The notes under the pieces were generated by a model that worked only from the letters and a program-made list of their open reading frames with translations, ran no database searches and had not been told where the DNA came from. Below are positions 1-57,436 of a stretch of DNA of 64,000 bases, piece after piece. A program made the position numbers and the translations under genes. The first letter of the stretch is position 1; each line of letters begins with the position of its first letter. The DNA comes from an uncultured virus (IMG/VR IMGVR_UViG_3300007961_000315). Its lineage: Duplodnaviria; Heunggongvirae; Uroviricota; Caudoviricetes. The stretch lies in IMG/VR virus record IMGVR_UViG_3300007961_000315; one strand, 5' to 3'.

Positions 1-1266
1 TTGTTATCCCCAAAGGCAAAACGGATTTTCGCATGGTCGATGGCTCTGCTGATGGCGCTGATGGTGCTGGTCCCATCGCTTTCTGCGATGGTGGACGCCG
101 CCGACGATGAGGACGAATATGAAGAAGAGCTGGTTGCGGAAGGTTCCGAAGATGCGGCACAGCCGGACTTCACAGAAGAAAAGAACCAGATCAGCAATCT
201 CAATAATAAATATAAGCAGCTGCAGCAGCAGCAAAACGAGATCCAGTCGAAGATCACCGCCGCGCAGGGCCAGCGCAAACAGCAGGAGGCCCTCAAGCAG
301 GAGATCGATAACCAGATCAACAACACCCTGCAGCAGATTGATCTGCTCAATGAACGCATTGCCCTTCTGGAGGACGAGATCCGCACGAAGGAAAAGGAAA
401 TGAACCAGAAACAGGCTGAGATTGACGACACCTATGAGCTGTTCAAGCTGCGTTTCCGTGCGATGACCGCGACACAGAACACCAGTACCCTGGGACTGGT
501 GCTCGGAGCGGAGGATTTCTCCGAGTTTTTGACCCGCACCGAGGTTTCGACCCGGATTGCCAAATACGACCAGGCCATGATGGACGCGCTGCTCGCGGAA
601 AAGCGGGAACTTGAAGAGATCAAGGGCAAGATCGAAGAGAGCAAAGCGGGCGTCGAGCGGGATAAAGCGGATATGGCCGTCAAGAAAAACGACCTCGACC
701 ACCAGATGTCCGAAGCGCAGGAGCGCATCCAGGACATCGCCGCGATGGAGCGGGAATTCCTCGCAAACAAGGCTGAGCTGCAAAAGCAGATGGCGGCCGT
801 GCAGGCGGAAATCGACAAGATCTACGATGAAATCAACAAAAATTCGGCCAATTCAGTCTACAGCGGCGGCCAGATGGCCTGGCCCGCGCCCGGGCTTTCG
901 ATGGTCACCTCGGAATACGGCTCCCGCTTCGGCGGAAGCGATTACCATACCGGCATCGACATCTCCGGCGGGGGCGCTTATGGTGCTTCGATCGTCGCGG
1001 CAAACTCTGGGACGGTAGCCTTTGTCAATACGGCGGTTACGCCGGGATACGGCTACGGAAAATATCTGATCATCGACCACGGCGGCGGGATTTCCACCCT
1101 TTATGCCCATTGCAGCGCGATCAATGTTTCGGTGGGGGAGAAAGTCTCCCGCGGCCAGAAGATCGCGGAGGTCGGATCGACTGGCTGGTCTACCGGGCCA
1201 CATGTCCATTTTGAGGTGCGTGTCAACGGCAAGCACCAGCCGCCGCGTCCATACCTGGGCAGATAA
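1..1266 (+). CDS. Coiled-coil + M23 (LytM) peptidase, EnvC/murein hydrolase-like
   Basis: Signal peptide, long coiled coil, C-terminal HTGID and GPHVHFEVR zinc motifs; TTG start at window edge matches the paralogue's N-terminus. Confidence 0.85.
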   Translation: MLSPKAKRIFAWSMALLMALMVLVPSLSAMVDAADDEDEYEEELVAEGSEDAAQPDFTEEKNQISNLNNKYKQLQQQQNEIQSKITAAQGQRKQQEALKQEIDNQINNTLQQIDLLNERIALLEDEIRTKEKEMNQKQAEIDDTYELFKLRFRAMTATQNTSTLGLVLGAEDFSEFLTRTEVSTRIAKYDQAMMDALLAEKRELEEIKGKIEESKAGVERDKADMAVKKNDLDHQMSEAQERIQDIAAMEREFLANKAELQKQMAAVQAEIDKIYDEINKNSANSVYSGGQMAWPAPGLSMVTSEYGSRFGGSDYHTGIDISGGGAYGASIVAANSGTVAFVNTAVTPGYGYGKYLIIDHGGGISTLYAHCSAINVSVGEKVSRGQKIAEVGSTGWSTGPHVHFEVRVNGKHQPPRPYLGR

Positions 1267-26309: not shown

Positions 26310-26406
26310 TTGACAATAAAATTGGTAAGTGATAAAATATTTACGCAATAAAATCGTGTGAAAACAGGAACTGGGGGCTTGACAAATGGGCTCATCTGTG
26401 CATAAT
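26310..26406 (+). promoter_or_regulatory. Tandem promoters upstream of surface protein 1
   Basis: P1 TTGACA(26310)-17-TAAAAT; P2 TTGACA(26379)-16-CATAAT; same layout at 44326-44422. Confidence 0.65.
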
Positions 26407-26514
26407 TTTACTGGGCACTGGGCACTGGGCACTGGGCACTGGGCACTGGGCACTGGGCACTGGGCACTGGGCACTGGGCACTGGGCACTGGGCACTGGGC
26501 ACTGGGCAGGTTAA
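26386..26514 (+). CDS. Putative leader peptide MGSSVHNF(TGHWALG)4TGHWAG
   Basis: ATG 8 nt after GGGGG, reads through the repeat, TAA in the terminator loop; equivalent uORF at 44402. Confidence 0.5.
   Translation: MGSSVHNFTGHWALGTGHWALGTGHWALGTGHWALGTGHWAG
26411..26508 (+). repeat. Heptamer SSR (CTGGGCA)14
   Basis: 98 bp perfect tandem repeat. Confidence 0.97.
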
Positions 26515-26535
26515 GTCTGCCCTTTTTTGTTTTTT
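26504..26535 (+). terminator. Leader hairpin 1; 5' stem supplied by the last repeat unit
   Basis: GGGCAG-GTTAAGT-CTGCCC-TTTTTTGTTTTTT. Confidence 0.7.
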
Positions 26536-26556
26536 CTCACAGTTTACATGGTCTTA

Positions 26557-26615
26557 AAGGCGTGTTCCGTCCGCGGGAGGTTTACCGCGGGCGGGACGCG
26601 CCTTTTCGCGTTTTT
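26557..26615 (+). terminator. Leader hairpin 2 (long GC stem)
   Basis: AAGGCGTGTTCCGTCCGCGG..CCGCGGGCGGGACGCGCCTT then TTCGCGTTTTT; homologue at 44533-44592. Confidence 0.6.
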
Positions 26616-26661
26616 CTCCAAACAGCAGCGTAAATCCAGAAACAAAAAGGAGTGGCCAAAA

Positions 26662-29454
26662 GTGAAACAAAGCAGATTGAAAGTGTTGTCGCTGGTGATG
26701 GCAGCGGCGCTATGCATGACCCTGCTGCCGGTGACAGCGCTGGCGGCAGATGGCGACGCCATGACGCTGGGAGCCAGCAGCATCCCGAAAGGGAATTTCA
26801 TCTATTATGGCAATTATGGCGGCGAGAATATCAAGTGGAAGGTGCTCTCTGATGAAGGAAACGGAGGCACCTATCAGGACAGCGGTGCTGCAATGTTCCT
26901 GCTGTCGGAATACATTCTGGATAATAACAATGTCCAGTTTGAGGCTGTATGGGACAGTGATGATGGCGACGGACAGGGAACCCAGTATAACATGTGGCAG
27001 CACAGCGACGGACAGGTGTGGTGCAGTACTTTTACGAATTCAGCTTTCGATAAAAAGGAAGCCGCTGCCATTCATAAGACCAGCAAGACTGACAACAAGA
27101 CTGACAGTGCGACGGGTCCATACAATGTAAGCTGGGGAGCAAGCAGTTTGAATGAAGAACAGGTATTTTTCATTTCGGCGGACGAAGCGGCGGCCTATAT
27201 CGGGCCGAATGATGGAGCTGCAGGTCTTGCGGCGACAACCAGCGCCGGAGGCGCCGGGGCGTGGTGGCTGCGCTCCCCTTACCGGTACAATGCTTACAAC
27301 GCGGGGGCCGTCATCGATAATGGTTTTGTGCGCGATCGCAGCGTAGACATTACCTACGGTGCTCGGCCCGCTTTTAATTTAAATCTGGACTCTGTTCTCT
27401 TCGCATCTGCCGCCGCAGGCGGCAAATCTTCCGGCGCCGCAGGCGCCGGCGCTCTCCAGAAAATTACCGGCCCTGCGCCGACCGAGTGGAAGCTGACGCT
27501 GAGGGACAGCTCCCGCAGCGGATTTGATGTGAGCGGCGAAACAATTTCCGGCAGTACCGTTTCCTTTTCCTACTCCGGCGCAAAGACCGGCACCAATGAA
27601 TATCTCTCGGCAATAATCGAGCAGGGCGGAAGCATCACCCATTACGGGCGGATTAAGCTACTGGATGAAACAACAGAATCTTCCGGTACTGCGTCCATCA
27701 CCCTGCCTGCCAATGTGAAACTGGGCGGGAATGTCAGCCTGTATGTGTTCAACGAGCAGTACAATGGCGATAAAAAGACCGACTATGCCAGTGAGTTGAA
27801 GTCTCTTAACCCTCCCCCGGCAGAGGGAAACAAACTGTTGAGCATTACGCAGCCCGTCCCTGTCATTGGCTTGAGCAATGGAACGGCAAAGACTGCGGAG
27901 GCTATGGGCCTGCCCAAAACGGTGGATATCACCACCTCTACCGGCACCCCCACCGAAGCAGAGGTAGCATGGAAAGTAGACGAGTGCGGCTATGACCAAA
28001 CAAAAGACGAGGCGCAGACCTTTGATGTTTCCGGTACGGTAACCCTGCCGGACGGCGTCACCAACCCGGACAATGTTTCTCTTAATGTGACCATCAGCGT
28101 CACCGTTTCCGCAAAAGCTGATCCGAATATCAACAGCATATCCATCAAAACCAAACCAGATAAAACCCGTTATACCGAGGGCGATACGCTGGATTTGAAC
28201 GGGCTTGAAATCACCATTGGTTACAGCGGCGGCGATCCGAAGGATGTTCCGTTCAGCGATTTTGCGGACAGCGGCGTGAGCACCAGCCCGGCGAACGGCG
28301 CCCCTTTGACAACGGCAAATACCACCGTTACCGTCAGCGTGGGAGCGTACAGCGACAGTTTCAATATCACCGTGGCAGAGGGAAACAAACTGTTGAGCAT
28401 TACGCAGCCCGTCCCTGTCATTGGCTTGAGCAATGGAACGGAAAAGACCGCGGAGGCTATGGGCCTGCCCGAAACGGTTGGCATCACAACCAGCAGCGGT
28501 TCGCCAACCTCCGCCAGCGTCACATGGGATGTGGATGGATGCAGCTATAACCCTGCAAGTGGATCGGCGCAGACCTTTGATGTTTCCGGTACGGTGACCC
28601 TGCCAGACGGCGTTACCAATCCGGACAATGTTTCTCTTAATGTGACCATCAGCGTCACCGTTTCCGCAAAGGTTGATTCGACTGTTGCCAGTGTGGAAAT
28701 CAAGACGTCCCCAACGAAAACCAGCTATACCGAGGGCGACACGCTGGATTTGACCGGGCTTGCGATTACCATTGTTTACAGTGATGACGCATCTTCTTCC
28801 AGTTCCTCCTCCGCTTCGGATTCCTCTGGTTCCTCTGTGGATATTGAGTTCAGTGACTTTGCGGACTACGGCGTGGGCACTACCCCTGCACATGGAGCCA
28901 AGCTGACAACGGCAAATACCACCGTTACCGTCAGCGTGGGAGAACATAGCGACAGCTTCAATATCACCGTTACGGAGGCGGGGAACCCCGACCCCGGCCC
29001 TGATGATGACGATGATGACGACCGGCCCAGCAGACCCAGCGGTGGTGGTGGCGACTCCGACAGCCACCCGGATGATGACAACTATGAGTTCTGGGACAAA
29101 GTCAAGCAGAAGGTGCAGGATGCCGAGCCGGGAGAAACCATCAAGGTAAATGCCCGGAGCTATGACAAGTTCCCGTATGACCTGATGAAAGCCCTGTATG
29201 ACCGCGGGGACGTGAGCCTTGAAATCCGCTGGGACGACGGCGATACCTTTACCATCCCGGCAGGGCAGGCCCTGAAACCGGCGAAAAACCGGATTTTCTA
29301 CCGCCTCGAGTACCTTGCAGAGCAGTTTAAGGATGCACCGGCGGCAGCTCCGGTTCAGGAGGAAGACCCCGCCAAGCTCAATCCCAGCACCGGCGCGGGC
29401 AGCTTCTGGGACTATCTGATGTTTTTACTTTGTTCTATCTTTGACGCAGCCTAA
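26662..29454 (+). CDS. Surface protein 1: signal peptide, DUF6273/CLec-like domain, tandem Ig-like domains, NPSTG near C-terminus
   Basis: GTG after AAGGAG; YYGNY..IKWKVL..LLSEYIL..WWLRSP..GARPAFNLNL; KTRYTEGDTLDL Ig-like repeats. Confidence 0.8.
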   Translation: MKQSRLKVLSLVMAAALCMTLLPVTALAADGDAMTLGASSIPKGNFIYYGNYGGENIKWKVLSDEGNGGTYQDSGAAMFLLSEYILDNNNVQFEAVWDSDDGDGQGTQYNMWQHSDGQVWCSTFTNSAFDKKEAAAIHKTSKTDNKTDSATGPYNVSWGASSLNEEQVFFISADEAAAYIGPNDGAAGLAATTSAGGAGAWWLRSPYRYNAYNAGAVIDNGFVRDRSVDITYGARPAFNLNLDSVLFASAAAGGKSSGAAGAGALQKITGPAPTEWKLTLRDSSRSGFDVSGETISGSTVSFSYSGAKTGTNEYLSAIIEQGGSITHYGRIKLLDETTESSGTASITLPANVKLGGNVSLYVFNEQYNGDKKTDYASELKSLNPPPAEGNKLLSITQPVPVIGLSNGTAKTAEAMGLPKTVDITTSTGTPTEAEVAWKVDECGYDQTKDEAQTFDVSGTVTLPDGVTNPDNVSLNVTISVTVSAKADPNINSISIKTKPDKTRYTEGDTLDLNGLEITIGYSGGDPKDVPFSDFADSGVSTSPANGAPLTTANTTVTVSVGAYSDSFNITVAEGNKLLSITQPVPVIGLSNGTEKTAEAMGLPETVGITTSSGSPTSASVTWDVDGCSYNPASGSAQTFDVSGTVTLPDGVTNPDNVSLNVTISVTVSAKVDSTVASVEIKTSPTKTSYTEGDTLDLTGLAITIVYSDDASSSSSSSASDSSGSSVDIEFSDFADYGVGTTPAHGAKLTTANTTVTVSVGEHSDSFNITVTEAGNPDPGPDDDDDDDRPSRPSGGGGDSDSHPDDDNYEFWDKVKQKVQDAEPGETIKVNARSYDKFPYDLMKALYDRGDVSLEIRWDDGDTFTIPAGQALKPAKNRIFYRLEYLAEQFKDAPAAAPVQEEDPAKLNPSTGAGSFWDYLMFLLCSIFDAA
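27262..27449 (+). other. Candidate DGR variable region plus downstream GCA-triloop hairpins
   Basis: WWLRSP...GARPA with 21/26 intervening codons ending in C/T; TGCCGCC-GCA-GGCGGCA (27408) and CCGGCGCC-GCA-GGCGCCGG (27431). Confidence 0.6.
27820..28971 (+). repeat. Intragenic duplication of a ~555-bp two-Ig-domain unit
   Basis: GCAGAGGGAAACAAACTGTTGAGCATTACGCAGCCC at 27820 and 28375; second copy has a Ser-rich insertion. Confidence 0.9.
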
Positions 29455-41400: not shown

Positions 41401-41992
41401 CAGGACGATGCGGCAGTGGCTGGACGCAGGCTGGAAGGGTTTCCCCATCTCGTTAAACTACTCCCGTTCCACCCTTCTGGAACCGGATATTTTGGAAGAA
41501 ACCAACCGCATTGTGGAACGCTATCGCATTCCGAAAGAGCTGATTGAAATTGAGATCACCGAGACCATCTCCTCCGTAGACAGCATGGGTCTGAAGGATA
41601 TCGTCCGCAGGCTCGCGCAGTCCGGATACCGGCTGGCCATCGATGATTTCGGTGCGGATTACAGCAACATCTATGTACTGTATCTGCTGGATATCCACAC
41701 TCTCAAGTTCGACCGGAAGATCATCAACGATATCTATCATAATGATCGGGCGCGCGCAGTGGTCCAAAACCTCCTGAATCTGTGCCGACAGATGAACATT
41801 GTGTCAGTAGCAGAAGGGGTTCAGTCTCAAGAGCAGCTGGAGACGCTGCGGGAGATGTCCTGCGACCTGATTCAGGGCTATTTTATCAACAAGCCTATAC
41901 CGATGGACGAATTCCAACGGCTGTATATTCAGGTGGTTCAGGGAGCAGATCTGCACGCTGATCATATGGTGGACGGTGTTTCTCTGATCTAA
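38414..41992 (+). CDS. PAS-repeat, degenerate GGDEF x2, EAL phosphodiesterase
   Basis: PAS/PAC (EYRIRRRDG..WV..DITERK), DSEDTF and ISGATF degenerate GGDEF sites, EALIR, DDFG, VAEGV, QGYF. Confidence 0.85.
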   Translation: MQSSMNTAPLDELQNQAGSNMEASAAQIKEWKELQTIVESSSCGVYKAALLEGVPILYANDGYYAIHDYTRQQFEEELGNRGASLILPQDIQRIAQAIENSLKCRDSKLVLEYRIRRRDGAVAWVHSEINFFSGTDGEQQIAGLVFDITERKELELRLRRTSTLYHIAQKHSRLNMWELDIKNRRIIQTEGSKALHGYGDVVENVPDSLLASGYFHPDTVAEVQGLFDRIYSGRKQSSATYKVKKKDSDTEYWWEKVTYELVPDEDGNAAYAIGVSEDVTEQKETELQRSRDVLLNQMVYEDVLFSIQADLTEDTVLSSWFSERALGFEKAENFSANDLFQYILTAMANPDDAKRFKEQFSEKPLQTYIQNDLDIPSFECRQQTADGHIVWVRLISRINTSAENGHRILTLYARDISKQIQGEQRLQQKAERDEESGLYNFPTGRLLIQNILRSRAVSNQNSTLALMKLDGLSSVQGQTAKKELMLSITAQVRAWLPSSCIIARDSEDTFLLFCYGMRSTAERIAVVERIIKEATHPEHHLPDGVTLQTFAGIINQIEAEAEFDQIYHAAFNLLMQAWKNGEPCVVSDEENVSETSAEQQGWSIEKFVEQSWKDFERGTSPDEIARIAFGYLGTESHARRITSFLRLPGSRQLQKQLEWRSHKNGGSLPDLDSAKMGELFLSIPESKNVVTIRPDSGRLYDCFSKCCQTAPVCPAIVCSSRANGILTFCILMEGTNQTPPVQEMESIVSFLRRIYFVNELHIHYKYAALRDPVTSLFNFEGYLKRLQDLQEDTLSSLGMVSVYILNFKEYNRQYSSRQGDAMLQSVAQIMEDIFGANACYRISGATFLAICPDVTYETFMGLYHKLESRMELAHRSRIACASVWEQNAISLDVMKEQLDERIQVAANRLRLENKTAAERFAHIAYEQVKEKIGKGNFVAFLQPKASASTGKVCGAEALIRYQDEERGILPPGEFLKAIEAAGAIREIDLFMLESVCRTMRQWLDAGWKGFPISLNYSRSTLLEPDILEETNRIVERYRIPKELIEIEITETISSVDSMGLKDIVRRLAQSGYRLAIDDFGADYSNIYVLYLLDIHTLKFDRKIINDIYHNDRARAVVQNLLNLCRQMNIVSVAEGVQSQEQLETLREMSCDLIQGYFINKPIPMDEFQRLYIQVVQGADLHADHMVDGVSLI

Positions 41993-42012
41993 CCGAAGAG
42001 AGGATTGAGTTT

Positions 42013-43290
42013 ATGTTTGGTCATCAGTTGTTTATGAAGGAAGCAGGGAAGATTGCCGCCAGATATGCCGGAGAACACAGAGTATTTCTCTTCTATGCGG
42101 ATATTGCTGAGTTCCGACTCATTAACTACTTTTATGGCACGAAACAGGGAGATGAGTTGCTTCTTGCAGTGGAAGGATATCTAAGTCAAATCCCGCAAGT
42201 TCAGCTATATGAAAGGATATTTTCTGACTATTTCGCGTTTGTAGTTGTTACCGATGCGCCACGGTCGGACGACGCGCTGATTGAAACGTATCAGCGCTAT
42301 GCCGATACGTTTATCGCTGCTCAAAAGGAGAAGTATCCAGCCGGCAATCTGAAGATTTACTGCGGTATCTGCCCACTGGGAGAGAACAATCTTTCGGAAA
42401 CATTAGACCACGCCAACATTGCTCGCAAACAAGCACGAGAAAGTGTTGTGCGTACCGTTGTTGTTTTTAACCGCCAGATGCAGAAGAATCTTCAAACAAA
42501 TATTGAACTGGAAAAGGAAGTGAACACCTGTCTTTGGGAGAAACGGTTCACCTTTGTTTTACAGCCGAAGGTCAATATGCTCACCGGTGAGATCGTCGGC
42601 GCTGAAGCGCTAGCCCGCCGGGTTACGCCAGAAGGTGAAATCATTTATCCCGATTTTTTTCTGTCAATCATGGAACGTAACGGTTCCATTGTGGATATGG
42701 ACTATCTGATTTTGGAGCATGTCTGTGTCCACATGGCGGAGCGGTTGCGCAGAGGGTTGCCGGTGGTTCCCACATCGGTGAATCTTTCCCTACTGCATGT
42801 CTTAGATGAGTCCACCGCCTTTCGTATCCATGAGATTGTGCAACAATATAAGGTGCCGGCCAGGCTATTAGAGTTCGAACTTACCGAGACTATTTTCACC
42901 GAAGAATTGGCAGGAGCTAAGCGGTTAGTGGAGCGTCTGCGAAATTTGCATTACTCTGTGGCTATTGACGATTTTGGTTCGGGCTATGCAGGCATTACCC
43001 TTTGGCAGGAACTGGACTTTAACGTCCTCAAGTTGGACAGGCGATTTCTATCGGAGGAGGAACCTCTGTGTACCCGAAATCAAGCCATTGTTCCAAATAT
43101 TGTGAACATCGCCTGGAAGTTGGACAACACCGTTATCTGTGAAGGCATCGAAACCTATGAGCAGTGCCAGTATATGCTGAATATGGGGTGTACGATTGCG
43201 CAGGGCTTTTATTTTTCGCGAGCAGTGCCTGCGGAAGAATTTTATCAGAAATACCAAGAAGTGTCTGGGTATTTCCCCATTTTTCGTTAG
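42013..43290 (+). CDS. Degenerate GGDEF + EAL phosphodiesterase
   Basis: IFSDYF site; LQPK, EALAR, DDFGSGY, CEGIET, QGFY. Confidence 0.85.
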   Translation: MFGHQLFMKEAGKIAARYAGEHRVFLFYADIAEFRLINYFYGTKQGDELLLAVEGYLSQIPQVQLYERIFSDYFAFVVVTDAPRSDDALIETYQRYADTFIAAQKEKYPAGNLKIYCGICPLGENNLSETLDHANIARKQARESVVRTVVVFNRQMQKNLQTNIELEKEVNTCLWEKRFTFVLQPKVNMLTGEIVGAEALARRVTPEGEIIYPDFFLSIMERNGSIVDMDYLILEHVCVHMAERLRRGLPVVPTSVNLSLLHVLDESTAFRIHEIVQQYKVPARLLEFELTETIFTEELAGAKRLVERLRNLHYSVAIDDFGSGYAGITLWQELDFNVLKLDRRFLSEEEPLCTRNQAIVPNIVNIAWKLDNTVICEGIETYEQCQYMLNMGCTIAQGFYFSRAVPAEEFYQKYQEVSGYFPIFR

Positions 43291-43301
43291 GAGTGTTTTT
43301 T

Positions 43302-44192
43302 GTGGAAGAGATGTACTTAACCATTATCAACCATATCCATGACGGGGTCTACTATGTGGACAGGGATCGCAAAATCCTCTTTTGGAACAAAGCAGCTGAG
43401 AGAATCACCGGATACTCCGTCGAAGAAATCGTTGGGGTACGATGCCCGGAGACTCACCTGGATCACATCGATGAAGAAGGGCGGCCGATGTGTGAGATCG
43501 GATGCCCTTTGTTCGCCGCCATTGGTGATGGAGAAGAACGGCAGGCCCATGTGCTGGTTCGTCACAAGGAGGGCTACCGTATCCCAATTTTGGTCAATGT
43601 GTACCCGGTAAAAAAAGATGGGGAGATTGTCGGCGCTCTTGATATCTTCACGCTGGAGTCCCCCACCGTTTACGAGGATACCGTGGTGGAACATCTCTCT
43701 GGAATCGCCATGCACGACCCGATCACCGGACTTCCCAATCGTAGATACCTAGAGAGCTTTTTGACTTATAAGTACGATGAGTACAAGAGGTTTGGCCGTC
43801 TGTTTGCGGTGCTGTTTGGGGACATTGACAATTTCAGAAATTTCAATAACAATTTTGGACATGAGCTCGGTGACCAGGTGCTGCGCAACATTGCGGCCAG
43901 TATCCAGAAAAATATGCGCCGGGACGATCTGGTCGGCCGGTGGGGCGGTGAAGAATTCGTGGGTATTTACAGCGTTTCATCTCCGGATGATATCCATATT
44001 ATCGGCAATAAGTTCTGGAAGCTTATTCAGAGCACAGAAGTTTCTCATGAAGAGGAGTTTTTAAACGTTTCTATGTCGGTCGGAATTACTACCATCCAGC
44101 AGGAAGATACGGTCGATTCTATTCTGTCCCGGGCAGACCGACTGATGTATCAGGCAAAAAAAGCAGGTAAGGACCAGGTGATGTTCGGATAA
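43302..44192 (+). CDS. PAS-GGDEF diguanylate cyclase
   Basis: WNKAAERITGY PAS with Cys cluster; DIDNF, RRDD I-site, RWGGEEF. Confidence 0.9.
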   Translation: MEEMYLTIINHIHDGVYYVDRDRKILFWNKAAERITGYSVEEIVGVRCPETHLDHIDEEGRPMCEIGCPLFAAIGDGEERQAHVLVRHKEGYRIPILVNVYPVKKDGEIVGALDIFTLESPTVYEDTVVEHLSGIAMHDPITGLPNRRYLESFLTYKYDEYKRFGRLFAVLFGDIDNFRNFNNNFGHELGDQVLRNIAASIQKNMRRDDLVGRWGGEEFVGIYSVSSPDDIHIIGNKFWKLIQSTEVSHEEEFLNVSMSVGITTIQQEDTVDSILSRADRLMYQAKKAGKDQVMFG

Positions 44193-44325: not shown

Positions 44326-44422
44326 TTGACAAAAAAGGGGCTGTTTTGGTAAAATATATGCGTAAAAAATTGTGTGAAAGCAGGAACTGGGGGCTTGACA
44401 AATGGGCTTAATTGTGCATAAT
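44326..44422 (+). promoter_or_regulatory. Tandem promoters upstream of surface protein 2
   Basis: TTGACA(44326)-18-TAAAAT; TTGACA(44395)-16-CATAAT; homologous to 26310-26406. Confidence 0.6.
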
Positions 44423-44488
44423 TTCACTGGGCACTGGGCACTGGGCACTGGGCACTGGGCACTGGGCACTGGGCACTGGGCAGGTTAA
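44402..44488 (+). CDS. Putative leader peptide MGLIVHNF(TGHWALG)2TGHWAG
   Basis: ATG after GGGGG; TAA in the terminator loop; same frame outcome as locus 1. Confidence 0.5.
   Translation: MGLIVHNFTGHWALGTGHWALGTGHWAG
44427..44482 (+). repeat. Heptamer SSR (CTGGGCA)8
   Basis: 56 bp perfect tandem repeat. Confidence 0.97.
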
Positions 44489-44592
44489 GTCTGCCCTTTT
44501 TTGCGTTCAACAGTTGTATAACAAATTAAAAAAAGGCGTGTTCTGTTCGCAGTATTTTTACTGCGGGCGGGACGCGCCTTCCTGCGTTTTTC
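44478..44592 (+). terminator. Leader hairpins 1 and 2 of locus 2
   Basis: GGGCAG-GTTAAGT-CTGCCC-T6; AAGGCGTGTTCTGTTCGCAGTA..TACTGCGGGCGGGACGCGCCTT. Confidence 0.65.
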
Positions 44593-44635
44593 CCCAAACC
44601 ACATAGCAAACCAAGAACCAAAAGGAGTGGCCGAA

Positions 44636-47600
44636 ATGAAACAAATTAGAATGAAAGCGTTGTCGCTGGTGATGGCGGCGGCTCTTTGCATGACCCAGCT
44701 GCCGGTGACGGCGCTGGCTGTAATTGCAGAAGATAAGCAGCTTACCTGCACGCAGGAGGAGCATGCCCATAACGAGAGTTGCTATGAAAACGTCCTTACC
44801 TGCACGGAGCAAACCGGAGAGCATGAGCATGAGGAAAGCTGCTATGAAGGAAAACTGACCTGTGAAAAAGAAGAGCACGCCCATGGGGAGGACTGCTATT
44901 CTGCCGTTCCAGACTCGGGGCCTGAAGGCGAAAAGGACAAAGCTGAGTGCAGCTGCGGCAGCACGGGCGATACCCATGCCGAAAACTGCCCGTTATACGC
45001 TTCGCCTGAAGGCGAAAAGGAGTGTACCTGTGGCAGCACTGACAACACCCACGCCGAGGACTGCGAACTTTACCAAGCGCCTGACGAGCCTGTCTGCTCA
45101 CAGTTGGAGGGCTGCGGCGATAATACCCACGACGAAAACTGCCCGTTATACACCGCGCCTGAAGGTGAAAAGCAACTGACCGAGGCGGCAAAAGAGGTAC
45201 AGGAGCAGATAGATGCTCTGCCCGCTGTTTTGGATGCCGAAAGCTTTACCGATGAGCAAAAAGAAAGCGCACTGGCAGATGCCAAAAGCGCAAAAGCGGC
45301 TTACGATGCCCTGAGCGATGATGAAAAGAATACCGTAACAGGGATAGAAAGCCTGAATGCCCTCCTCGCACTTTTAGAGGGGAAAAACGTTGATAATACG
45401 AAAGCCAAATACATAATCACCGCATGGAAATGGGTGGATGAGGAAGAAATGCTTGACCCCGAAACCGGTGTGCTGGCACTTCCCGGTGCATCGCAGCAAT
45501 ATGTTGTATCCTTTGAGGATATCACGGCATTTCTCCACGCATCTATAACCGCTGCCGTTGCTGCGGCAGACGGTGAAGACGCCGAAGAAACAGAGGATAC
45601 CGAAGAAACGGTTGCTCTGGGCGGTTGGATATGCGAGGATTACCCGCAGGATGGCGCATACAGCGGCAGCTATACCTTTAACGCCACCCTGCCGGATGGC
45701 TATGCCCTTGCGGAGAATGCAAAAGCGCTTACCGTATCGGTGGAGCTGGGCGGTGCGCAGCTTTTTGATGAAAAAACAATTTCCAGCTACACCGTCTACG
45801 TGGCCGGTCAGGCACTGACCGTCACAAATGTCGGCGGCAGCTGGAACACCGCCTACGCCACCACCAACAGTGCTGGTGAGGTCGACCCGGTCACGGACAG
45901 CACTGTCCCGACGGACAACTACGTCAAATTTGAGGTCGTGGACGGTACCCCCACCTTGACCCTGAAGGATGCCAATATTGTGAACAACGACAACTCGGAG
46001 TATGCCACTGTTTATGGCATTTACTTTGCCAAGGAGACTCCCTTGACGATCAACGGCGCGGGCGACAACACCATCGCCGCCAGCGCCGGAGAAGATACAC
46101 GGGCGTTTGGCATCCGTGCCGGTGGCCCTCTGACCCTGACGGGAAACTTTAAGAGCATCACCGCAACAGCTACCAACGCCACCGGCATTGAGGCGCAGAC
46201 GGTAACCATTGACGAGGGCTGCGAGATCGGCAAGATCACTGCAGACGAAAATCAAGGACATGGCATTTTAGCTGGCAATGGGTCGGTGACCATCAAGGGC
46301 ACTCTGGGAGAAGTCACCGCCGGAAGGTATACAGTAAATACATCGAATCTGACGATTGCGGGTACGGCTGAATTTACCAACACCGGTTTGATCGAAATCA
46401 GTGGTGCCGCAGAGTTAAATGTGAACTCCGGGGCTACATTTATCAACACCGGCACGATCAAAACCGGAGCGACGTACTCCATCAATAACAATGGCAGTAT
46501 CACCAACACCGGCACCATGACGCTGGGGACGAACCTTACCGGCAGCTCCGTCGAAATCACGAATGACGGCGGCAGCTTTACCAATGCCGGCACAATCGAG
46601 TTTGGGAGCGGGAGCACTGTCACCGTCACAAATAAGAATAACGGCACCTTTATCAACAACGGCACGCTGAAGGTCGACTGCCAGAACAAAAATACAATTA
46701 CTATAGACGGCTGCACAGTGGAGCGCATCCACAATTGGTCAAACGGCACTTGTACGAACTGCAGGGAAGAACACGTCCACGCGGAAAACGATTGTACTTA
46801 CGAGCTCGGAGCTGCGCAGAACATCCTCAATGCGACCTGCGGCGTTTGCAAAGGCACGGCCACCATCACGCTGACGGCCCCCAATGATTTGATCTATGAC
46901 GGAAATCCCAAGACCGTCACCGTGACCCAATCCCCCGAAAGGGCGTTTACCAACCTGCCCGCTGTGCAGTACCCCAGCGGTAACACCGACGCAGGAAACC
47001 GCACAGCAACCTTGAACTGCGGCGGACAGGCCGCAGAAGTGAAGTTTACCATTCGCCCCTGTGAAGTCAAGGGCGCGGCCGTGACCGTCAGTGGCAGCTA
47101 TAGCTACACGGGCAGCGCCATTGTTCCCGAAGCAGGCAATGTGAGCGTTACGCTGGACGGCAAGACCTTTGCCAGCGGCACGGACTATGCCTACACCGCC
47201 AGCAGCAATGTGGACGCAGGCCCAGCCACCGTGACCGTGACCTTTAAGGGGAACTACTCCGGCACCGCAGAGGGCAGCTTCACCATCGGCAAGGCCGCTC
47301 AACCCCTGAGCTTTGCGGAATCCACGCTGAACAAGACCTACGGCGACAGCGCCTTTACGCCGACAATCAACCATGTTGGCGACGGCGCTGTGACCTATAC
47401 CAGCAGCAATCCGGATGTGGCCGGCGTGGACATTGACGGCAAGGTGACGATCAAGAACGCCGGAACCACCAAGCTGACCATCAGCGCCGCGGGCACGGAC
47501 AACTACAACGCCAGCACGGAAGCCGGCTGTACGCTGACGGTGAACAAGAAGCCCGTTACCGTCTGCCTTGCGAATATGGGCGTGACCGTGGGCAGCACCG

Positions 47601-48805
47601 CCCCCACCGTAGCCCTGACCTACCAGGGCTTGGTCAGCGGCGATACGGTGGACTTTACCCCCGCGTTCACCCTGACCGACAAGGACGGCAACCCCCTCAA
47701 GGGCGCAGACGGAGCGGAGCTAACCTTTGCCGACGCGCTGACCAAGGCGGTGAGCAAGGTGGGCAGCTATACCATCAAATGGGATAACGCCGAGGAACTC
47801 ACAGCCCTTAACGAAACGGGCAACTATACCTTCACCGTGGCCGAGGGCAGCGACATCGCCACCCTCACCGTCAAGAGAAAATCCTATAGCGGCGGCGGAG
47901 ACTCTGACGACTCCGATTCCGACAGCAGCTATTCGGGCGGCTCGGCAGGCACGGGCAGCAGTTCTGTATCCACGCCCACTGCACCTCAGACCCCCGCAGA
48001 GCAGCCGAGCACCGTTTCTCCGCAGGGATATGCCCCGGCAGGCGAAATCAGGCCCTCGGCAGAGCTGCCGTTCATTCAAGGGGAAAACGGCAAGGCCGGC
48101 TGGGCGGCAATCGTAGATGAACTGACCGATAAGGCGGCGCTGCCGGAGCATACCACTGTTACCGTGGATATGAACGGCGCTGTAACCGTTCCCGGAAATG
48201 TTTTGGAGCAGATAAAGGGGAAGGATATTACCGTCGTCTTTGATATGGGCAATGGAATTACATGGTCGGTAAACGGCAGGGATGTTACCGCCGATAAAAT
48301 CGGGGATATCAACTTCAATGTCCGCGCGGGCGAAGATGCGGATAAAATTCCGGTTGATGTGATAAACAAGGTGACGGGAGAACGCTATTCCATCCAGATC
48401 AGCCTTGATTACAGCGGCGAATTCGGCTTTGCCGCAATCCTCACCATCGATTTGGGTAAGAATAACGCGGGCCTGTTTGCAAACCTGTTCTACTATAACG
48501 AAACCACCGGCGAAATGGAGTTTATCTGTGCCGATGAGATTGCTAAGGACGGAACCGCAAGCCTCACCTTTACACACGCCTCCAGCTACACCATCGTGAT
48601 CGATGATGCGCCGATGGATGGAAGTGTGGAGGAAGCTGCCGGCAGCAGTGCCGGTGAGCAGGACGGCACAAAGACTGAAGATCCGGCCGTGCCGGCTGAA
48701 GCAAAAGCAACATCCGGCAAGCCGATTTTGGTCGTCATCGCGGCTGTCGTGATTGCGGCAGGGCTTGGAGCATTTCTCCTGATCAGGAAAAAGAAAAAGG
48801 AATAG
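44636..48805 (+). CDS. Surface protein 2: signal peptide, His/Cys repeats, beta-helix-like region, Ig/MBG-like repeats, C-terminal TM anchor
   Basis: Signal peptide almost identical to surface protein 1; TC..EEH.H.E.CY repeats; N.GT repeats; YTGSAI..DAG.ATVTV..KGNYSG; TM plus RKKKKE tail. Confidence 0.85.
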   Translation: MKQIRMKALSLVMAAALCMTQLPVTALAVIAEDKQLTCTQEEHAHNESCYENVLTCTEQTGEHEHEESCYEGKLTCEKEEHAHGEDCYSAVPDSGPEGEKDKAECSCGSTGDTHAENCPLYASPEGEKECTCGSTDNTHAEDCELYQAPDEPVCSQLEGCGDNTHDENCPLYTAPEGEKQLTEAAKEVQEQIDALPAVLDAESFTDEQKESALADAKSAKAAYDALSDDEKNTVTGIESLNALLALLEGKNVDNTKAKYIITAWKWVDEEEMLDPETGVLALPGASQQYVVSFEDITAFLHASITAAVAAADGEDAEETEDTEETVALGGWICEDYPQDGAYSGSYTFNATLPDGYALAENAKALTVSVELGGAQLFDEKTISSYTVYVAGQALTVTNVGGSWNTAYATTNSAGEVDPVTDSTVPTDNYVKFEVVDGTPTLTLKDANIVNNDNSEYATVYGIYFAKETPLTINGAGDNTIAASAGEDTRAFGIRAGGPLTLTGNFKSITATATNATGIEAQTVTIDEGCEIGKITADENQGHGILAGNGSVTIKGTLGEVTAGRYTVNTSNLTIAGTAEFTNTGLIEISGAAELNVNSGATFINTGTIKTGATYSINNNGSITNTGTMTLGTNLTGSSVEITNDGGSFTNAGTIEFGSGSTVTVTNKNNGTFINNGTLKVDCQNKNTITIDGCTVERIHNWSNGTCTNCREEHVHAENDCTYELGAAQNILNATCGVCKGTATITLTAPNDLIYDGNPKTVTVTQSPERAFTNLPAVQYPSGNTDAGNRTATLNCGGQAAEVKFTIRPCEVKGAAVTVSGSYSYTGSAIVPEAGNVSVTLDGKTFASGTDYAYTASSNVDAGPATVTVTFKGNYSGTAEGSFTIGKAAQPLSFAESTLNKTYGDSAFTPTINHVGDGAVTYTSSNPDVAGVDIDGKVTIKNAGTTKLTISAAGTDNYNASTEAGCTLTVNKKPVTVCLANMGVTVGSTAPTVALTYQGLVSGDTVDFTPAFTLTDKDGNPLKGADGAELTFADALTKAVSKVGSYTIKWDNAEELTALNETGNYTFTVAEGSDIATLTVKRKSYSGGGDSDDSDSDSSYSGGSAGTGSSSVSTPTAPQTPAEQPSTVSPQGYAPAGEIRPSAELPFIQGENGKAGWAAIVDELTDKAALPEHTTVTVDMNGAVTVPGNVLEQIKGKDITVVFDMGNGITWSVNGRDVTADKIGDINFNVRAGEDADKIPVDVINKVTGERYSIQISLDYSGEFGFAAILTIDLGKNNAGLFANLFYYNETTGEMEFICADEIAKDGTASLTFTHASSYTIVIDDAPMDGSVEEAAGSSAGEQDGTKTEDPAVPAEAKATSGKPILVVIAAVVIAAGLGAFLLIRKKKKE

Positions 48806-49459: not shown

Positions 49460-50086
49460 TCAGCCAGCTAACATCTCTTTCTCGGTGGTGGTTCTATAGA
49501 CGACGCCATAGCGAGTCGTTCTTACTATGATTTTACCCTGGTGAACCAATCCGGTAAAGATCTCCCGTACCACTTCATTTCCCGGCGGGAAGGGAGAATT
49601 TTTGCAGTCAATTAGATTCAGTGAATACTTTTCTGAAACCGAGGAAAGCTCCTTTCTGCCGTCCGTATACAGATTTCTGCGCGAAGTGCGGAATGCCTCC
49701 AGAAGATCAGATGCAATCTGATCCCGCTGACTCGCCAAATCTTTTAAATGCTCTTCCAAGGGCATATCTACGTAAATCTTGTAGAAATCCACGCGGTAGC
49801 AGGAAAAAGTTTGGGCTGTCATCAGAAGAGAATGGATTGCTTCAATATTTTCTTCCAACACCACCCCGCTGAATTCCTGCGGATGCAGGTAAAGTTCTTC
49901 TTTTCCGCGAGTGACAGTGTCGGCGGCGCCGAAAATCGTATGAGGCACTAATGTCCAGCCGTCATCCAAAAAAAGCTGAGAAGATTCTTTCTGGAAGGCA
50001 TCCTTTTTTTCTGAGGACAAATATCCGGAATAGGGGCAGTAAGCAGGGCACTCAATCCGGTAATAGACTTTGATGTATTTCTTGAT
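49460..50086 (-). CDS. Hypothetical protein; start uncertain (ATC after a perfect RBS)
   Basis: AAGGAGG then ATC AAG AAA TAC; EELYLHPQEFSG motif; may have a mutated or non-canonical start. Confidence 0.55.
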   Translation of the reverse strand: MKKYIKVYYRIECPAYCPYSGYLSSEKKDAFQKESSQLFLDDGWTLVPHTIFGAADTVTRGKEELYLHPQEFSGVVLEENIEAIHSLLMTAQTFSCYRVDFYKIYVDMPLEEHLKDLASQRDQIASDLLEAFRTSRRNLYTDGRKELSSVSEKYSLNLIDCKNSPFPPGNEVVREIFTGLVHQGKIIVRTTRYGVVYRTTTEKEMLAG

Positions 50087-50129
50087 GATTCTTCCTCCTT
50101 CGTGAATATAGTTCGGATGTTCCTCACTG

Positions 50130-53100
50130 CTATGCCGCAATCTGCTGCTTTCCCCAGTACAACTCCGGCCGCCCCTCTAAATCATAGCTTTTAAAGACAG
50201 CGCCCTGATGGTGCAGCAGAGAAAATCCCATTTCCTCGAACAATTTTTCAAAGGAGATATCCTGTCCTTTGAGAAAGCGGAGCATCCGCTCTTTTGCAAC
50301 GAGTAAATAAATGAGATTTGTTTCGATACTGCGAGGATAATTTACGTAATAAATAAATTTTTCTCGGGTGCTGGTATAGCGGATGAAGCGGTAATAGAAC
50401 TGGGACATCCGACTTTCATTCCAATGAAGCTCGGCTAAAAAGCAGTAGTCGACACTGTCGATGCTCATGGATTCGGACAGGCTTTGCTGCGTACAGATTA
50501 AGATCGCGTTTTCGCATTCCTCGAACCGTCCGTAGATCAAATCACGCCGCTGATGCGGCTGATACTCACTGCCGGTGATGGTGAAGACCGGACGATCTGG
50601 GAAGGCCTCACGCGCCGCCGCCGCATAAGCGCGGACGATATTGTTCTGCCGTACCCCGATGGCGACACGTTTGTTGGCGGGAATCTTCTGTATTTCATCG
50701 AAGATCGCCTCCATCTTTCCGGTAATCGCCGGGCCATGATAGTCCTGGAAGACCGGCGCACAGGTACAGATGCGCAGCATAATTTTGATCTGTGCAATGA
50801 TCCTGGCCTGGGCCAGCTTCCTGGCTGACATTTTAGTGGTTTTGAAATATTCACTTTCCAAACGGTTGAATTCTTTGAGCGCGACCTCATACAGAGCTTC
50901 CTCTTCCGGTTTCATCTCTGCGAGCAATTCGCGGCGATGTTCCAGGCTTTTGCCGGTAACCTCCTGAAAAGTTCGGGTGACCATGGTGTAGCTGATGAGC
51001 TCCCGCAGGACTTCCGCGTTGAGGATATCCTGCCGGCGCTGCACCACTCCGAATACTGTGAGCTTCTCCGGGAGATGGCTGTGCTTGAAGTAGGAGAGGC
51101 CTTCGGTATAAGGGGGATAGGGCTGCATGTACCGGTCATTTTCCTGAGATTCGTATTCCTGATAATCTTCACTCCATGAAAAAAGTTCCTTTGCTTTACA
51201 AAGCATGTTTACGGAAGCGTTGTAAAGCAGATAAAACTGGGGATAGGATTCCACGACATTGTTGTTTATGGACGTTCCGCTCATCAGGAGTTTGTATTTG
51301 AGAGAACCAAAGCAGGCGATGGTGGCTTTCGTGAGCCTGCCGACATCATCGCTCGCTTCCAGTGCCGACGAATTCTGCGCTTCGTCGTAGATGAGGAAGA
51401 GCTTGTGATTTGCCAGCCGTACAATTTCCTGGATGTTCTTTTTGTAATTTTTGACCCTCCCAAGGGTAATCAGTACAAAATCTCCAGGGTAGACCCGCCG
51501 CAGGTCGGCACGTTTTCGGATGACCTTATGGGGAATCTGATATTTCTCGAGAAACGGCGCCCAGGTCGTTTCGACGGAAATGGCCGAGGAAACCACAAAC
51601 ACATAATCGGTCTGGGCATGCGCCAGGCGGTACATCCCCTGTGCGGTTCCAGAAACAGTTTTGCCTGCGCCTTGGGACCATTGGAGATAGGCATACCGCT
51701 TTTGCAGGGTCAGATTGGTGTCATGCAGCTGCCGGTCACTGAGCCTGATGGGATTTTTCCCCCATCGATCAGTCAATACCCAGTTCTTCAGCCAATCACG
51801 GATCTCCGAGTCCTCCTCCATTTGATCGAAGGGCGTCACCTGATGGCGGTATTCCCGTTGCTTGCGCTGCATTAGTTTTCGATAGGGACCGCAGCTGTGC
51901 AGATCCTCCGCTTTTCCGGAAGTGACGATCTGCGCGATATCCTGCATACCCATTTCAAAGTTGCGTTCGTCTGCTTCCTTCTGAACCTGTTGGGAATAGG
52001 CCTTGTAGTAGATTTTGCTCTTTCCCTTTACCAATGCGATCCGGTCTTCTTCTACTTGATTTTGCTGTTTCAGGACACTGCGAATATACTGCACCACCGG
52101 ATTGTAGTGCAGACGTTCCTTTTCCCATTCCTGATAATCCATGTTATGGGGACGCTGCTGCTGATGGTAACGATTGAGCAAGTCCCGGCACTCTTCGTAC
52201 TTTCCTCTGGTGCGCGGATGAACTTTGATTTGATACAGCAGCAATTCTTCCTGCCGGCGCTTCTCATCATCCGCCCGTTCCTGACGGTTGAATTCGAGTT
52301 TGAGCTGCGGGGAGTTCCTCCGCTGCAGTTCCATCGCCTTACTGACATAGTCCAAATAAATGCGTTCCGCACTTGTATCCCTTCGAAGCTCCGGATTATA
52401 GGGAACTGCCTGAAATACAGCGGCCCGCCGCTGCAGGATCAGCAGCTTGGTGGGGAAATTGCGCACCCCCAGCCAGGCGAAGGCGTTGGGATCGAGGGCT
52501 ACCTGCACCACATGGTTAAACTGTTGATAGATACGCTTGATTTCGATCTTTTTGGTGGATTCTCCGAGGAAGGTTTCCGGAACGATCACTGCCAGCAATC
52601 CGCCGGGGAACAGCAGCTCTGCCGCTTTTAGGATGTATACCGTCTGGCTGCTCATCGATTTCCCATTATAAACCCAGTTAAGATTGTAAGGAGGATTGCC
52701 GACGACCAAATGAAAGTGGACACGTGGGTTATAAGTACGGATATCGCCCAGGGTGATCTTTGCCTGTGGGAACAGGTGACGCGCGATGCTGAAGCTGTCG
52801 GGGTCGATTTCACAGCCATAGATGCGGTCCTCGCCGCTGATATGGTTGAAAAAGGAGCCTTTGCCGCAGGTCAGATCGGCGACTCTGTGCCAGCATTTCG
52901 GCTGGAGACAGTCCATGACCCATTTACATAAACTGTCCGATGTGAAAAACTGCCCTTGTTCAATTTCTTTCTTTGCTTCGGAAAAATCATGGTAATTACC
53001 GTAATCGACATAGTTGAGCCCATGCAGCCCGCCAACGCCGGTGAATTTGTGGAAGATTTCTTCCGGTTCCATGGTGGGATGTTTCTGATCCAAAGCATCT

Positions 53101-53219
53101 AAGCACGCCCGGTTGAGGGTCTTGCGGTCCTTTAATGCGATGGGTTCTTGGTTTGCGGGGAATTTCAAAGAAACGTACACTCCCTTCTTCAAAGCAGAGC
53201 GGAGGAGCGCCTGTTGCAC
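50130..53219 (-). CDS. N6-adenine methyltransferase fused to SNF2/DExx-like helicase (ends QIAA)
   Basis: GQFFT, DLTCGKG, GNPPY; WSQGAGKT, YDEAQ, LMSGT, QFYYRFIR. Confidence 0.8.
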   Translation of the reverse strand: MQQALLRSALKKGVYVSLKFPANQEPIALKDRKTLNRACLDALDQKHPTMEPEEIFHKFTGVGGLHGLNYVDYGNYHDFSEAKKEIEQGQFFTSDSLCKWVMDCLQPKCWHRVADLTCGKGSFFNHISGEDRIYGCEIDPDSFSIARHLFPQAKITLGDIRTYNPRVHFHLVVGNPPYNLNWVYNGKSMSSQTVYILKAAELLFPGGLLAVIVPETFLGESTKKIEIKRIYQQFNHVVQVALDPNAFAWLGVRNFPTKLLILQRRAAVFQAVPYNPELRRDTSAERIYLDYVSKAMELQRRNSPQLKLEFNRQERADDEKRRQEELLLYQIKVHPRTRGKYEECRDLLNRYHQQQRPHNMDYQEWEKERLHYNPVVQYIRSVLKQQNQVEEDRIALVKGKSKIYYKAYSQQVQKEADERNFEMGMQDIAQIVTSGKAEDLHSCGPYRKLMQRKQREYRHQVTPFDQMEEDSEIRDWLKNWVLTDRWGKNPIRLSDRQLHDTNLTLQKRYAYLQWSQGAGKTVSGTAQGMYRLAHAQTDYVFVVSSAISVETTWAPFLEKYQIPHKVIRKRADLRRVYPGDFVLITLGRVKNYKKNIQEIVRLANHKLFLIYDEAQNSSALEASDDVGRLTKATIACFGSLKYKLLMSGTSINNNVVESYPQFYLLYNASVNMLCKAKELFSWSEDYQEYESQENDRYMQPYPPYTEGLSYFKHSHLPEKLTVFGVVQRRQDILNAEVLRELISYTMVTRTFQEVTGKSLEHRRELLAEMKPEEEALYEVALKEFNRLESEYFKTTKMSARKLAQARIIAQIKIMLRICTCAPVFQDYHGPAITGKMEAIFDEIQKIPANKRVAIGVRQNNIVRAYAAAAREAFPDRPVFTITGSEYQPHQRRDLIYGRFEECENAILICTQQSLSESMSIDSVDYCFLAELHWNESRMSQFYYRFIRYTSTREKFIYYVNYPRSIETNLIYLLVAKERMLRFLKGQDISFEKLFEEMGFSLLHHQGAVFKSYDLEGRPELYWGKQQIAA

Positions 53220-53238
53220 TCCTCCGCTTTCTTGTCAA

Positions 53239-54318: not shown

Positions 54319-54339
54319 GTTGACTTACCTCCCATCATT

Positions 54340-54693
54340 TTATTTGCAATATGCTGGATCATCGCCGCGCTCCACATTCTCACTGTGGAAGCAGTGCCCG
54401 CAATATTCCCAAATCCCATGAGGCCACTCACCTGACACACGCTTAAAGGTGGCATAGGTTGGACGCCATTTTCCGGAATCGGGGTCATGCCGATGGCTGT
54501 ACGGGTCCCCCATCTGAGTACAGCTATCTCTTAAACAGGCAGGCGGTAAACAGTTTACGGCATCGTCAACGATGGCTTGTTCAACATAGTCTCCAACCTG
54601 CACGCTGGTATAATCGAAATTATCCCTGCTCCACACTGTTTTTCCGTTAAACAGCGTTGTGGTTTGATTCCTGCTTTCTGGTGAAATATCCAT
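54340..54693 (-). CDS. Hypothetical protein
   Basis: CLPP..QMGDPYSH..TYATF..WEYCGHCF; RBS AAAGGAG. Confidence 0.65.
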   Translation of the reverse strand: MDISPESRNQTTTLFNGKTVWSRDNFDYTSVQVGDYVEQAIVDDAVNCLPPACLRDSCTQMGDPYSHRHDPDSGKWRPTYATFKRVSGEWPHGIWEYCGHCFHSENVERGDDPAYCK

Positions 54694-54785
54694 CTCATAA
54701 GCTCCTTTCCATGAAAACAAAAAAGGCACCCTGCGAATTCCCTCGTTTCGCAGAATGCGTCTCTCATCGTTTCGGTTTGGTTCTA

Positions 54786-56325: not shown

Positions 56326-56326
56326 G

Positions 56327-57403: not shown

Positions 57404-57436
57404 GTCTCAACTTCCTTTCACTTTGGTTTTATATGC

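Follow-up and report, generated by a model that had tools for sequence, protein, structure and literature searches.

A stretch of 64,000 nucleotides recorded as an uncultured virus (IMG/VR IMGVR_UViG_3300007961_000315; the whole stretch is referred to below as the window) contains two copies of one leader, each 5′ of a large gene: locus 2 (44326–44638) and locus 1 (26310–26662). In the reading that we favor, to which we assign a probability of about 0.4, this leader would be a stochastic on/off switch of the type known from pil1 of Streptococcus gallolyticus, in which the copy number of a 7-nt repeat sets the reading frame of a short upstream open reading frame (uORF) and the frame sets how far ribosomes reach into the transcription terminators that follow. 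Our confidence that the repeat drives variation of some kind is higher than our confidence in this uORF mechanism. The sequence features of the ~330-nt leader are themselves real; that the leader is also portable belongs to the proposed reading.

Both leaders have the same elements in the same order from 5′ to 3′: a promoter-like element (P1), a G-rich block, a second promoter-like element (P2), the repeat, a small hairpin (T1), a spacer of ~30 nt, a large hairpin (T2), an AAGGAG ribosome-binding site (RBS), and the large gene. The parts of locus 2 are as follows, with SD standing for Shine-Dalgarno and n for the number of repeat units.

44326..44355, + strand: P1; TTGACA, 18 nt, TGgTAAAAT, matching 11/12 consensus positions and with a TG extension.
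44389..44393, + strand: SD-like GGGGG, 8 nt 5′ of the uORF ATG and invariant in 3/3 leaders.
44395..44422, + strand: promoter-like P2; TTGACA, 16 nt, CATAAT, 11/12, with the uORF ATG inside it.
44402..44488, + strand: uORF in the assembled frame, 28 codons and TAA, with the repeat within it.
44425..44482, + strand: perfect repeat (CACTGGG)8; 8.3 copies at 100% matches by Tandem Repeats Finder (TRF).
44478..44502, + strand: T1, a small intrinsic terminator, GGGCAGGT/GTCTGCCC with a 3-nt loop, TAA (stem-loop 44478–44496), followed by T6.
44527..44529, + strand: TAA for n = 0 mod 3 (n+1), 3 nt 5′ of the T2 stem (44533).
44533..44592, + strand: T2, a hairpin of 22 bp with a U-rich tail, from the terminator scan; −38.3 kcal/mol, z −7.9.
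44604..44606, + strand: TAG for n = 1 mod 3 (n−1), 3′ of T2 and 18 nt 5′ of GGAG.
44624..48805, + strand: RBS GGAG (44624–44627) and the gene for a 1389-aa protein (ATG 44636), from open reading frame (ORF) and domain calls.

From the end of the repeat to the main start codon is 154 nt, and the repeat lies 3′ of both predicted promoters and inside neither. In the entire 64 kb, TRF reports only two long perfect microsatellites, each with a 7-nt unit, and these are the arrays of loci 1 and 2. The corresponding parts of locus 1 are as follows.

26310..26661, + strand: leader of locus 1, with P1 at 26310–26338, P2 at 26379–26406, and the uORF from ATG 26386 to TAA 26512.
26409–26508, + strand: repeat (CACTGGG)14; TRF gives 26410–26508, 14.1 copies, 100% matches.
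26504–26522 and 26556–26605, + strand: T1, identical to that of locus 2, and T2.

A third copy of the leader comes from a metagenome scan with the repeat plus the T1 stem as the query, in which the sole match lies on a 130-kb contig, L123. This is a third paralogue: P1, P2, the block with SD and ATG, T1, the spacer, and T2 are all shared, n is 11, and the downstream gene is a different one. In an alignment of the three leaders, homology starts at the −35 hexamer of P1 and in L123 stops just past T2, and the copied unit is therefore the leader itself. The copy numbers of 14, 8, and 11 (loci 1 and 2 and L123, respectively) differ by steps of 3 units, or 21 bp, and all three equal 2 mod 3, a coincidence of residues expected by chance in 1/9 of cases. 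TRF and the reading of frames confirm an earlier account of this DNA, made from the letters of the window (the original prediction), which gave n as 8 and 14, both 2 mod 3, with a TAA in the T1 loop (44486). It had allowed that two loci might share a residue by chance (1 in 3), a figure that now stands at 1/9 for three loci. It had also proposed that homologous leaders be collected and examined for a conserved single open frame and for covariation, and had counted a missing ATG against itself; the one further leader found does keep the ATG, with n = 11, but covariation among the three sequences comes to a single pair.

Several properties of the uORF suggest that it could be translated. Its SD would pair with the anti-SD at −8.4 kcal/mol, compared with −8.5 for the two main genes and a median of −6.9 kcal/mol, which is weaker, for 17 other ORF starts in the window; an energy of −8 is reached by 4.2% of the window's 2207 ATGs. 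The distance from GGGGG to the ATG (8 nt) equals that from GGAG to the main start, and of the starts reading into the repeat in the three frames, this ATG is the only one preceded by an SD. A 25-nt block, CAGGAACTGGGGGCTTGACAAATGG, which runs from CAGG to ATGG and holds the SD, TTGACA, and the ATG, is invariant in all three leaders; around it, ~8/30 positions vary on the 5′ side and 5/10 on the 3′ side. As at pil1, a repeat unit not divisible by 3 lies in a short ORF with its own SD and ATG, 5′ of the gene. The SD-like block itself, GGAACTGGGGGC (44382–44393, 26366–26377), resembles a degenerate repeat unit (ACTGGG), a likeness that may reflect an origin from the array or a shared recognition element.

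The stop codons of the three frames fall into distinct classes. Read from ATG 44402, the assembled frame of locus 2 ends at TAA 44486 in the loop of T1, and the other two stops are where the original prediction had placed them: n+1 ends at 44527, just 5′ of T2, whose stem begins at 44533, and n−1, the same frame as n+2, reads through to the TAG at 44604 near the RBS (GGAG at 44624–44627). At locus 1, the stops from ATG 26386 (26512, 26555, and 26631) form the same three classes, with the open frame reached via n+1 and the stop before T2 via n−1, the reverse of locus 2. This exchange arises because the spacer between the hairpins, which had been described as diverged in both sequence and length and is so, differs in length by 2 nt between the loci. 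Relative to the end of the repeat, stops lie at +5, at +46 or +48, and at +111 to +124, and the T2 stem extends from +50/52 to +98/100. In silico, a change in repeat number thus moves the stop from far 5′ of T2 to a position adjacent to or beyond it, as in pil1. The natural frame of all three leaders stops in the T1 loop and is, of the frames, the one whose stop is farthest from T2.

The hairpins and the repeats greatly exceed what chance would give. The T1 fold has −11.3 kcal/mol (z −3.3; the element of locus 1 is identical), and the T2 folds reach −43.4, −38.3, and −34.7 kcal/mol, with z from −7.3 to −8.6 and 0/200 shuffles as stable; the T2 stem has 21–22 bp in the two leaders of the window. 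Terminator scans place two predicted terminators between the uORF and the gene, in the position of the pil1 stem-loop, and termination at both is predicted. The repeat RNA is also self-complementary (CUGG/CUGG and GC/GC), which lets it fold into a long hairpin with interruptions, at −19, −29, and −38 kcal/mol for n = 8, 11, and 14. For RNA that begins at the repeat, T1 formation has a predicted probability of ≥0.97 at each n from 4 to 17, and therefore folding alone gives no n-dependent escape from T1. Two further structures were considered and rejected: a G-quadruplex in the repeat, for which quadruplex-aware folding returned the ordinary fold, and a long-range duplex between the SD block and the 3′ arm of T1, which is the minimum free energy (MFE) structure in locus 1 by 0.6 kcal/mol and is absent in locus 2. 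By eye, AGTGGCC in the main RBS region (44621–44632, 26647–26658) is complementary to GGGCACT at 6/7 positions; this complementarity is not conserved in L123 and is unused in the predicted MFE folds.

In the favored mechanism, transcripts from P1 would carry the SD-preceded short frame into a hypermutable 7-nt repeat, and replication slippage would add or remove whole units and thereby shift the frame. At n = 8, 11, or 14, the ribosome would end at the TAA in the T1 loop, 43 to 45 nt 5′ of T2; T2 would then form, and the gene would be OFF or low. With n+1 or n−1, the stop would lie 1 to 3 nt 5′ of T2, or translation would continue to a stop 15 to 25 nt 5′ of the RBS, and the ribosome near or passing through T2 would block its folding and turn the gene ON. 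The translated stretch takes in T1 whatever the frame; T1 would therefore act on untranslated RNA only, halting such transcripts, including any from P2. These expectations follow what is reported for pil1 (PMC3894217): a leader stop at least 28 to 39 nt 5′ of the terminator gives low expression, and one just 5′ of, inside, or past the hairpin gives high expression, since the ribosome prevents the hairpin. Because a stop just 5′ of the hairpin counts as ON under those rules, two states (one frame OFF and two ON) are likelier than the three states implied by the original prediction.

The mechanism as first put forward, with repeat number setting the uORF frame and the frame setting the reach of ribosomes into the terminators, is physically sensible, has a proven precedent that the original prediction did not name, and is partly supported here. 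It gives a reason for the 7-nt unit, for the SD and ATG, for T2, for the choice of surface proteins as targets, and for the common residue class. What the sequence shows is how the leader is built, where its stops fall, how stable its hairpins are, and how strong its SD is; from these we infer that transcription starts at P1, that ribosomes read the uORF and follow the polymerase closely enough, that T1 and T2 terminate transcription, and that n varies within populations.

A number of observations weigh against this mechanism, beginning with the frames themselves. T2 has no stop codon in any of the three frames, so an "open frame" needs no selection. The segment after the repeat is poor in stops, with exactly one per frame at locus 1. 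In 5000 dinucleotide-preserving shuffles of each of the three leaders, at least one frame was open past T2 in 82%, 65%, and 44%, and the full pattern (a stop within 12 nt plus a frame open past T2) occurred in 21%, 22%, and 20%. The frame pattern is therefore not beyond chance: the early stop and open frame said to have been retained are indeed present at both loci, but about 20% of shuffles show as much. When the 22 pairs of T2 were compared across the three sequences, 16 were constant, 3 varied on one side (U-G to C-G or U-A), and 2 had an unpaired cell, leaving a single two-sided compensatory change (A-U to G-C); the covariation score was equaled by 141 of 500 shuffles. The paired changes on both arms of T2 that had been reported thus exist as one compensatory pair and are weaker evidence than had been stated, and the conclusion once drawn from frames and arms together, that selection acts on both structure and reading frame, is not carried by a pattern common in shuffles and covariation at one pair.

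Other points in the same direction concern the elements. T1 is unable to discriminate between frames, and the U-tracts 3′ of T2 are imperfect at loci 1 and 2. There are starts without an SD at −13 in another frame (TTG in locus 2 and ATG in L123). Codons 2 to 4 of the uORF vary, and every change is non-synonymous, which is neutral for a frame switch and equally fits a promoter spacer. Only three related leaders are available, and the segment from T1 to T2 is near-identical in two of them. As a general caution, ribosomes lag behind RNA polymerase in at least some Firmicutes (PMC13323073), although the S. gallolyticus case (PMC3894217) shows that the mechanism can work in the phylum.

A further complication is P2. 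P1 in the two leaders of the window has the form of a sigma-70-type promoter (TTGACA, 17 to 18 nt, TGnTAAAAT, 11/12), with the −35 hexamer of locus 2 displaced by a 13-nt insertion in the alignment of the three leaders. Promoter scans place P1 5′ of the uORF, but P2 is equally good and surrounds the ATG: at both loci (44395–44422 and 26379–26406), this near-consensus element encloses the uORF start in its spacer, which the original prediction overlooked. Transcripts from P2 would have their 5′ end within the first unit of the repeat, and would therefore lack the uORF start and yield no peptide. Sites of the form TTGACA-16..18-TATAAT matching at ≥11/12 number 12 on both strands of the window; P1 and P2 at loci 1 and 2 account for 4 of them. 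Among the three leaders, the P2 hexamers are invariant and the spacer varies at 5 positions without indels, a pattern that is a putative promoter signature and would equally be that of an unconstrained peptide. The embedded P2 complicates a mechanism built purely on the uORF, which leaves it unexplained. P2, the repeat, and T1 would together form a self-contained short transcription unit of ~80 to 125 nt. In a fuller version, the leader would be a portable cassette with two outputs: ribosomes would read P1 transcripts through the self-folding, hypermutable array, T1 would pass translated transcripts only, T2 would sense the frame (one OFF, two ON), and P2 would fire an untranslatable repeat RNA ending at T1; copied before at least three surface-protein genes, among them that of a secreted ubiquitin-domain protein, with OFF (n = 2 mod 3) as the default, such a cassette would give each antigen independent stochastic control. 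We regard this fuller arrangement as doubtful.

One alternative dispenses with translation. P2, P1, or both may drive the gene, with the number of units just 3′ of the promoter tuning expression gradually through spacing, the length of a 5′ hairpin formed by the self-complementary repeat, or promoter escape; this would resemble the hmw loci of Haemophilus influenzae, where 7-nt repeats ~100 bp 5′ of adhesin genes modulate expression (PMC2651432). Such tuning fits the rarity of sites like P2 (one of only 12 in the window at ≥11/12, with invariant hexamers) and the stability of the repeat RNA, which rises with n (−19, −29, and −38 kcal/mol). It offers no reason, however, for 2 mod 3 in 3/3 leaders or for a conserved SD-like block and ATG, and T1 forming at ≥0.97 for n from 4 to 17 leaves no n-dependent escape; we consider it unlikely. 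P2, repeat, and T1 may instead encode a separate small RNA of ~80 to 125 nt, composed almost entirely of CACUGGG units and ending in a terminator hairpin, for example a platform for a protein with a 7-nt period, the gene being reached by read-through. In its favor, a strong promoter leads straight into the repeat, which is followed by a small terminator of classic form with U6, and T1 is predicted at ≥0.97 on transcripts of the P2 type, but neither a partner protein nor a target was identified, Rfam gave no match, and perfect repeats suggest the dynamics of slippage and not a conserved binding array. P1, the SD and ATG, and T2 would also be left unexplained. A small RNA seems to us improbable.

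The repeat might also be a hypermutable passenger, with n lacking regulatory meaning and the terminators either obeying a trans-acting antiterminator (protein or RNA) or serving as mere dampers. A scan of species genomes for the bare repeat found (CACTGGG)n with n ≥ 3 in at least 122 stretches from unrelated species, as 130 arrays of 3 to 16 copies, and the unit therefore expands readily. Among the matches listed, the hosts are unrelated and mostly from high-GC phyla (Longimicrobium, Phycisphaerales, Acidobacteriota, Streptomyces, and Oscillatoria are included), and none is clostridial. The frame pattern is compatible with chance, and there are three leaders only, both of which suit a passenger. 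Against it, one repeat has been kept in one position across three diverged leaders, each with a different gene behind it, and the arrays are perfect in all three, with lengths in one residue class. In addition, the three loci have no neighboring regulator gene in common, which fits a device acting only in cis, and the Rfam 15 covariance models gave 0 matches at gathering score in the whole window. We hold a passenger to be distinctly unlikely. A last alternative is that 8, 11, and 14 units, which differ by 21 bp or two turns of the DNA helix, keep flanking sites on one face. The steps among the three leaders are exactly 3 units, but no pair of protein-binding sites is evident around the repeat, the elements 3′ of it are RNA hairpins, and the evidence amounts to the same 1-in-9 coincidence, so that helical phasing appears very improbable. 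The block joining SD and ATG is predicted by none of these four alternatives, and the common residue class is predicted among them by helical phasing only.

Searches for relatives beyond the three leaders added no case. Scans of viral contigs with T1, with the SD/−35 block, and with the DUF6273 protein as queries gave no further leader, and blastn of the locus 1 leader against plasmids and phages gave no match. Of 463 candidates in a protein collection, 68 matched the locus 1 uORF at E ≤ 10. These were considered as possible leader ORFs in the ON frame and rejected: the leader N terminus was found in 0 of the 23 inspected out of the 68, and those inspected prove to be unrelated ORFs made of (GHWALGT)n, on record from Nostoc and its relatives. 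Cyanobacteria are well known to have tandem repeats of 7 nt. Among longer proteins in the collection, none matched the piece of locus 1 that is read in the open frame.

The genes behind the leaders encode secreted or anchored surface proteins, which are usual targets of phase variation.

26662..29454, + strand: gene behind locus 1, encoding a secreted protein of 930 aa with DUF6273, Big_3, and Big_4 domains.

The locus 1 protein ends in NPSTG and a hydrophobic tail, possibly a sortase signal. The 1389-aa protein of locus 2 has a signal peptide, a weak Ig-like match, repeats rich in Cys and His, and, at the C terminus, a membrane helix followed by KKKKE; several of the repeats (EEHAHxESCY...LTC) lie in its N terminus (window 44636–45000) and suggest metal binding. 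Each of these two genes has its own hairpin 3′ of it. The gene behind the third leader (L123:1–573, minus strand) encodes a signal peptide, a ubiquitin domain (PF00240; E = 1.1e−29), and then a DUF6273-like segment, and its product reads as a secreted bacterial fusion with a eukaryote-like ubiquitin domain. An ORF 5′ of that leader has a weak AP2-domain match, below the Pfam cutoff.

Sequence identity points to a gut Anaerotruncus bacterium, a clostridial commensal, as the carrier of the leader: the window's lysyl-tRNA synthetase shares 100% identity with an entry named "MULTISPECIES lysine--tRNA ligase [Anaerotruncus]." The sequencing runs that bear the locus are gut, stomach, and pig-gut metagenomes (20 rows, 13 studies), and the 4 runs with at least half of the sampled words are stomach and pig-gut metagenomes; no RNA run is among those listed. 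Both leaders of the window lie within accessory DNA that resembles a mobile or conjugative element (20159–31574 and 49460–60348), with genes for PcfJ-like, AAA_14, DUF4942, Fic-HTH, tyrosine integrase, large N6-methylase, ArdC-like, and IS605-type TnpB proteins. Three genes for turnover of cyclic di-GMP (PAS-GGDEF-EAL, GGDEF-EAL, and PAS-GGDEF; 38414–44192) stand directly 5′ of locus 2; Rfam found no cyclic di-GMP riboswitch in the whole window.

If the favored mechanism is correct, the leader would be a second, independently built case of frame-dependent leader attenuation driven by a simple sequence repeat, which has so far been demonstrated only in the pili of S. gallolyticus. Its presence before at least three targets in a strictly anaerobic clostridial commensal would indicate that such a design is a recurrent solution to stochastic surface variation in Gram-positive bacteria, and its simple sequence signature could be used to detect further cases. 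Metagenome assemblies would then show only the majority state of these genes, which is probably OFF. A literature search combining phase variation, leader peptide, transcription terminator, and tandem repeats returned only the S. gallolyticus paper, and one joining Anaerotruncus and phase variation returned nothing relevant by title or abstract.

Among known systems, the hmw1A and hmw2A genes of H. influenzae have tandem 7-nt repeats that modulate expression, possibly via two alternative starts (PMC2651432, citing Dawid et al. 1999); expression follows repeat number, by a mechanism left undetermined in that account. As here, the repeats (13 to 38 copies at hmw, ~70 to 100 bp 5′ of large adhesin genes) occur at two loci per genome with unequal copy numbers and in connection with alternative transcription starts (PMC2651432). 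Unlike here, the passages of that account on these repeats describe neither a leader ORF nor terminators (PMC2651432), and the unit sequence and the phylum differ. The leader also resembles trp attenuation in Escherichia coli, in that the position of the ribosome on a leader ORF would decide whether a downstream terminator folds (PMC3894217). In contrast to the trp leader, no alternative antiterminator hairpin or regulatory codons are seen, and the variable would be an inherited reading frame instead of the supply of charged tRNA.

The closest likeness is to pil1 of S. gallolyticus, where GCAGA repeats lie in a 38-aa leader peptide 5′ of a stem-loop terminator (Danne et al. 2014, PMC3894217); the wild-type consensus there has the low frame, and pil3 is a second locus with a like device (PMC3894217). 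Shared with pil1 and pil3 are the order of promoter, RBS and ATG, a short ORF filled with repeats of a unit that is not a multiple of 3, terminator, and gene for a surface structure; the setting of the stop by repeat number far from the terminator (low) or near, in, or past it (high), here in silico; and the occurrence of more than a single locus per genome, with the assembled or wild-type state in the low frame. There are also differences. The unit here is of 7 nt (CACTGGG) and not 5 nt (GCAGA), and RNA of the array is complementary to itself; there are two hairpins in tandem, the first of which falls, whatever the frame, in the translated part and has the default stop in its loop; the start codon lies inside another promoter-like element; and the genes encode surface proteins with Ig-like, DUF6273, or ubiquitin domains, not sortase pili, in a clostridial gut commensal. 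The pil1 switch is proven by experiment, whereas the present leader is known from sequence alone. It is plausible that this leader is a candidate variant of a rare known switch, new in its 7-nt unit, its two terminators, and its clostridial host.

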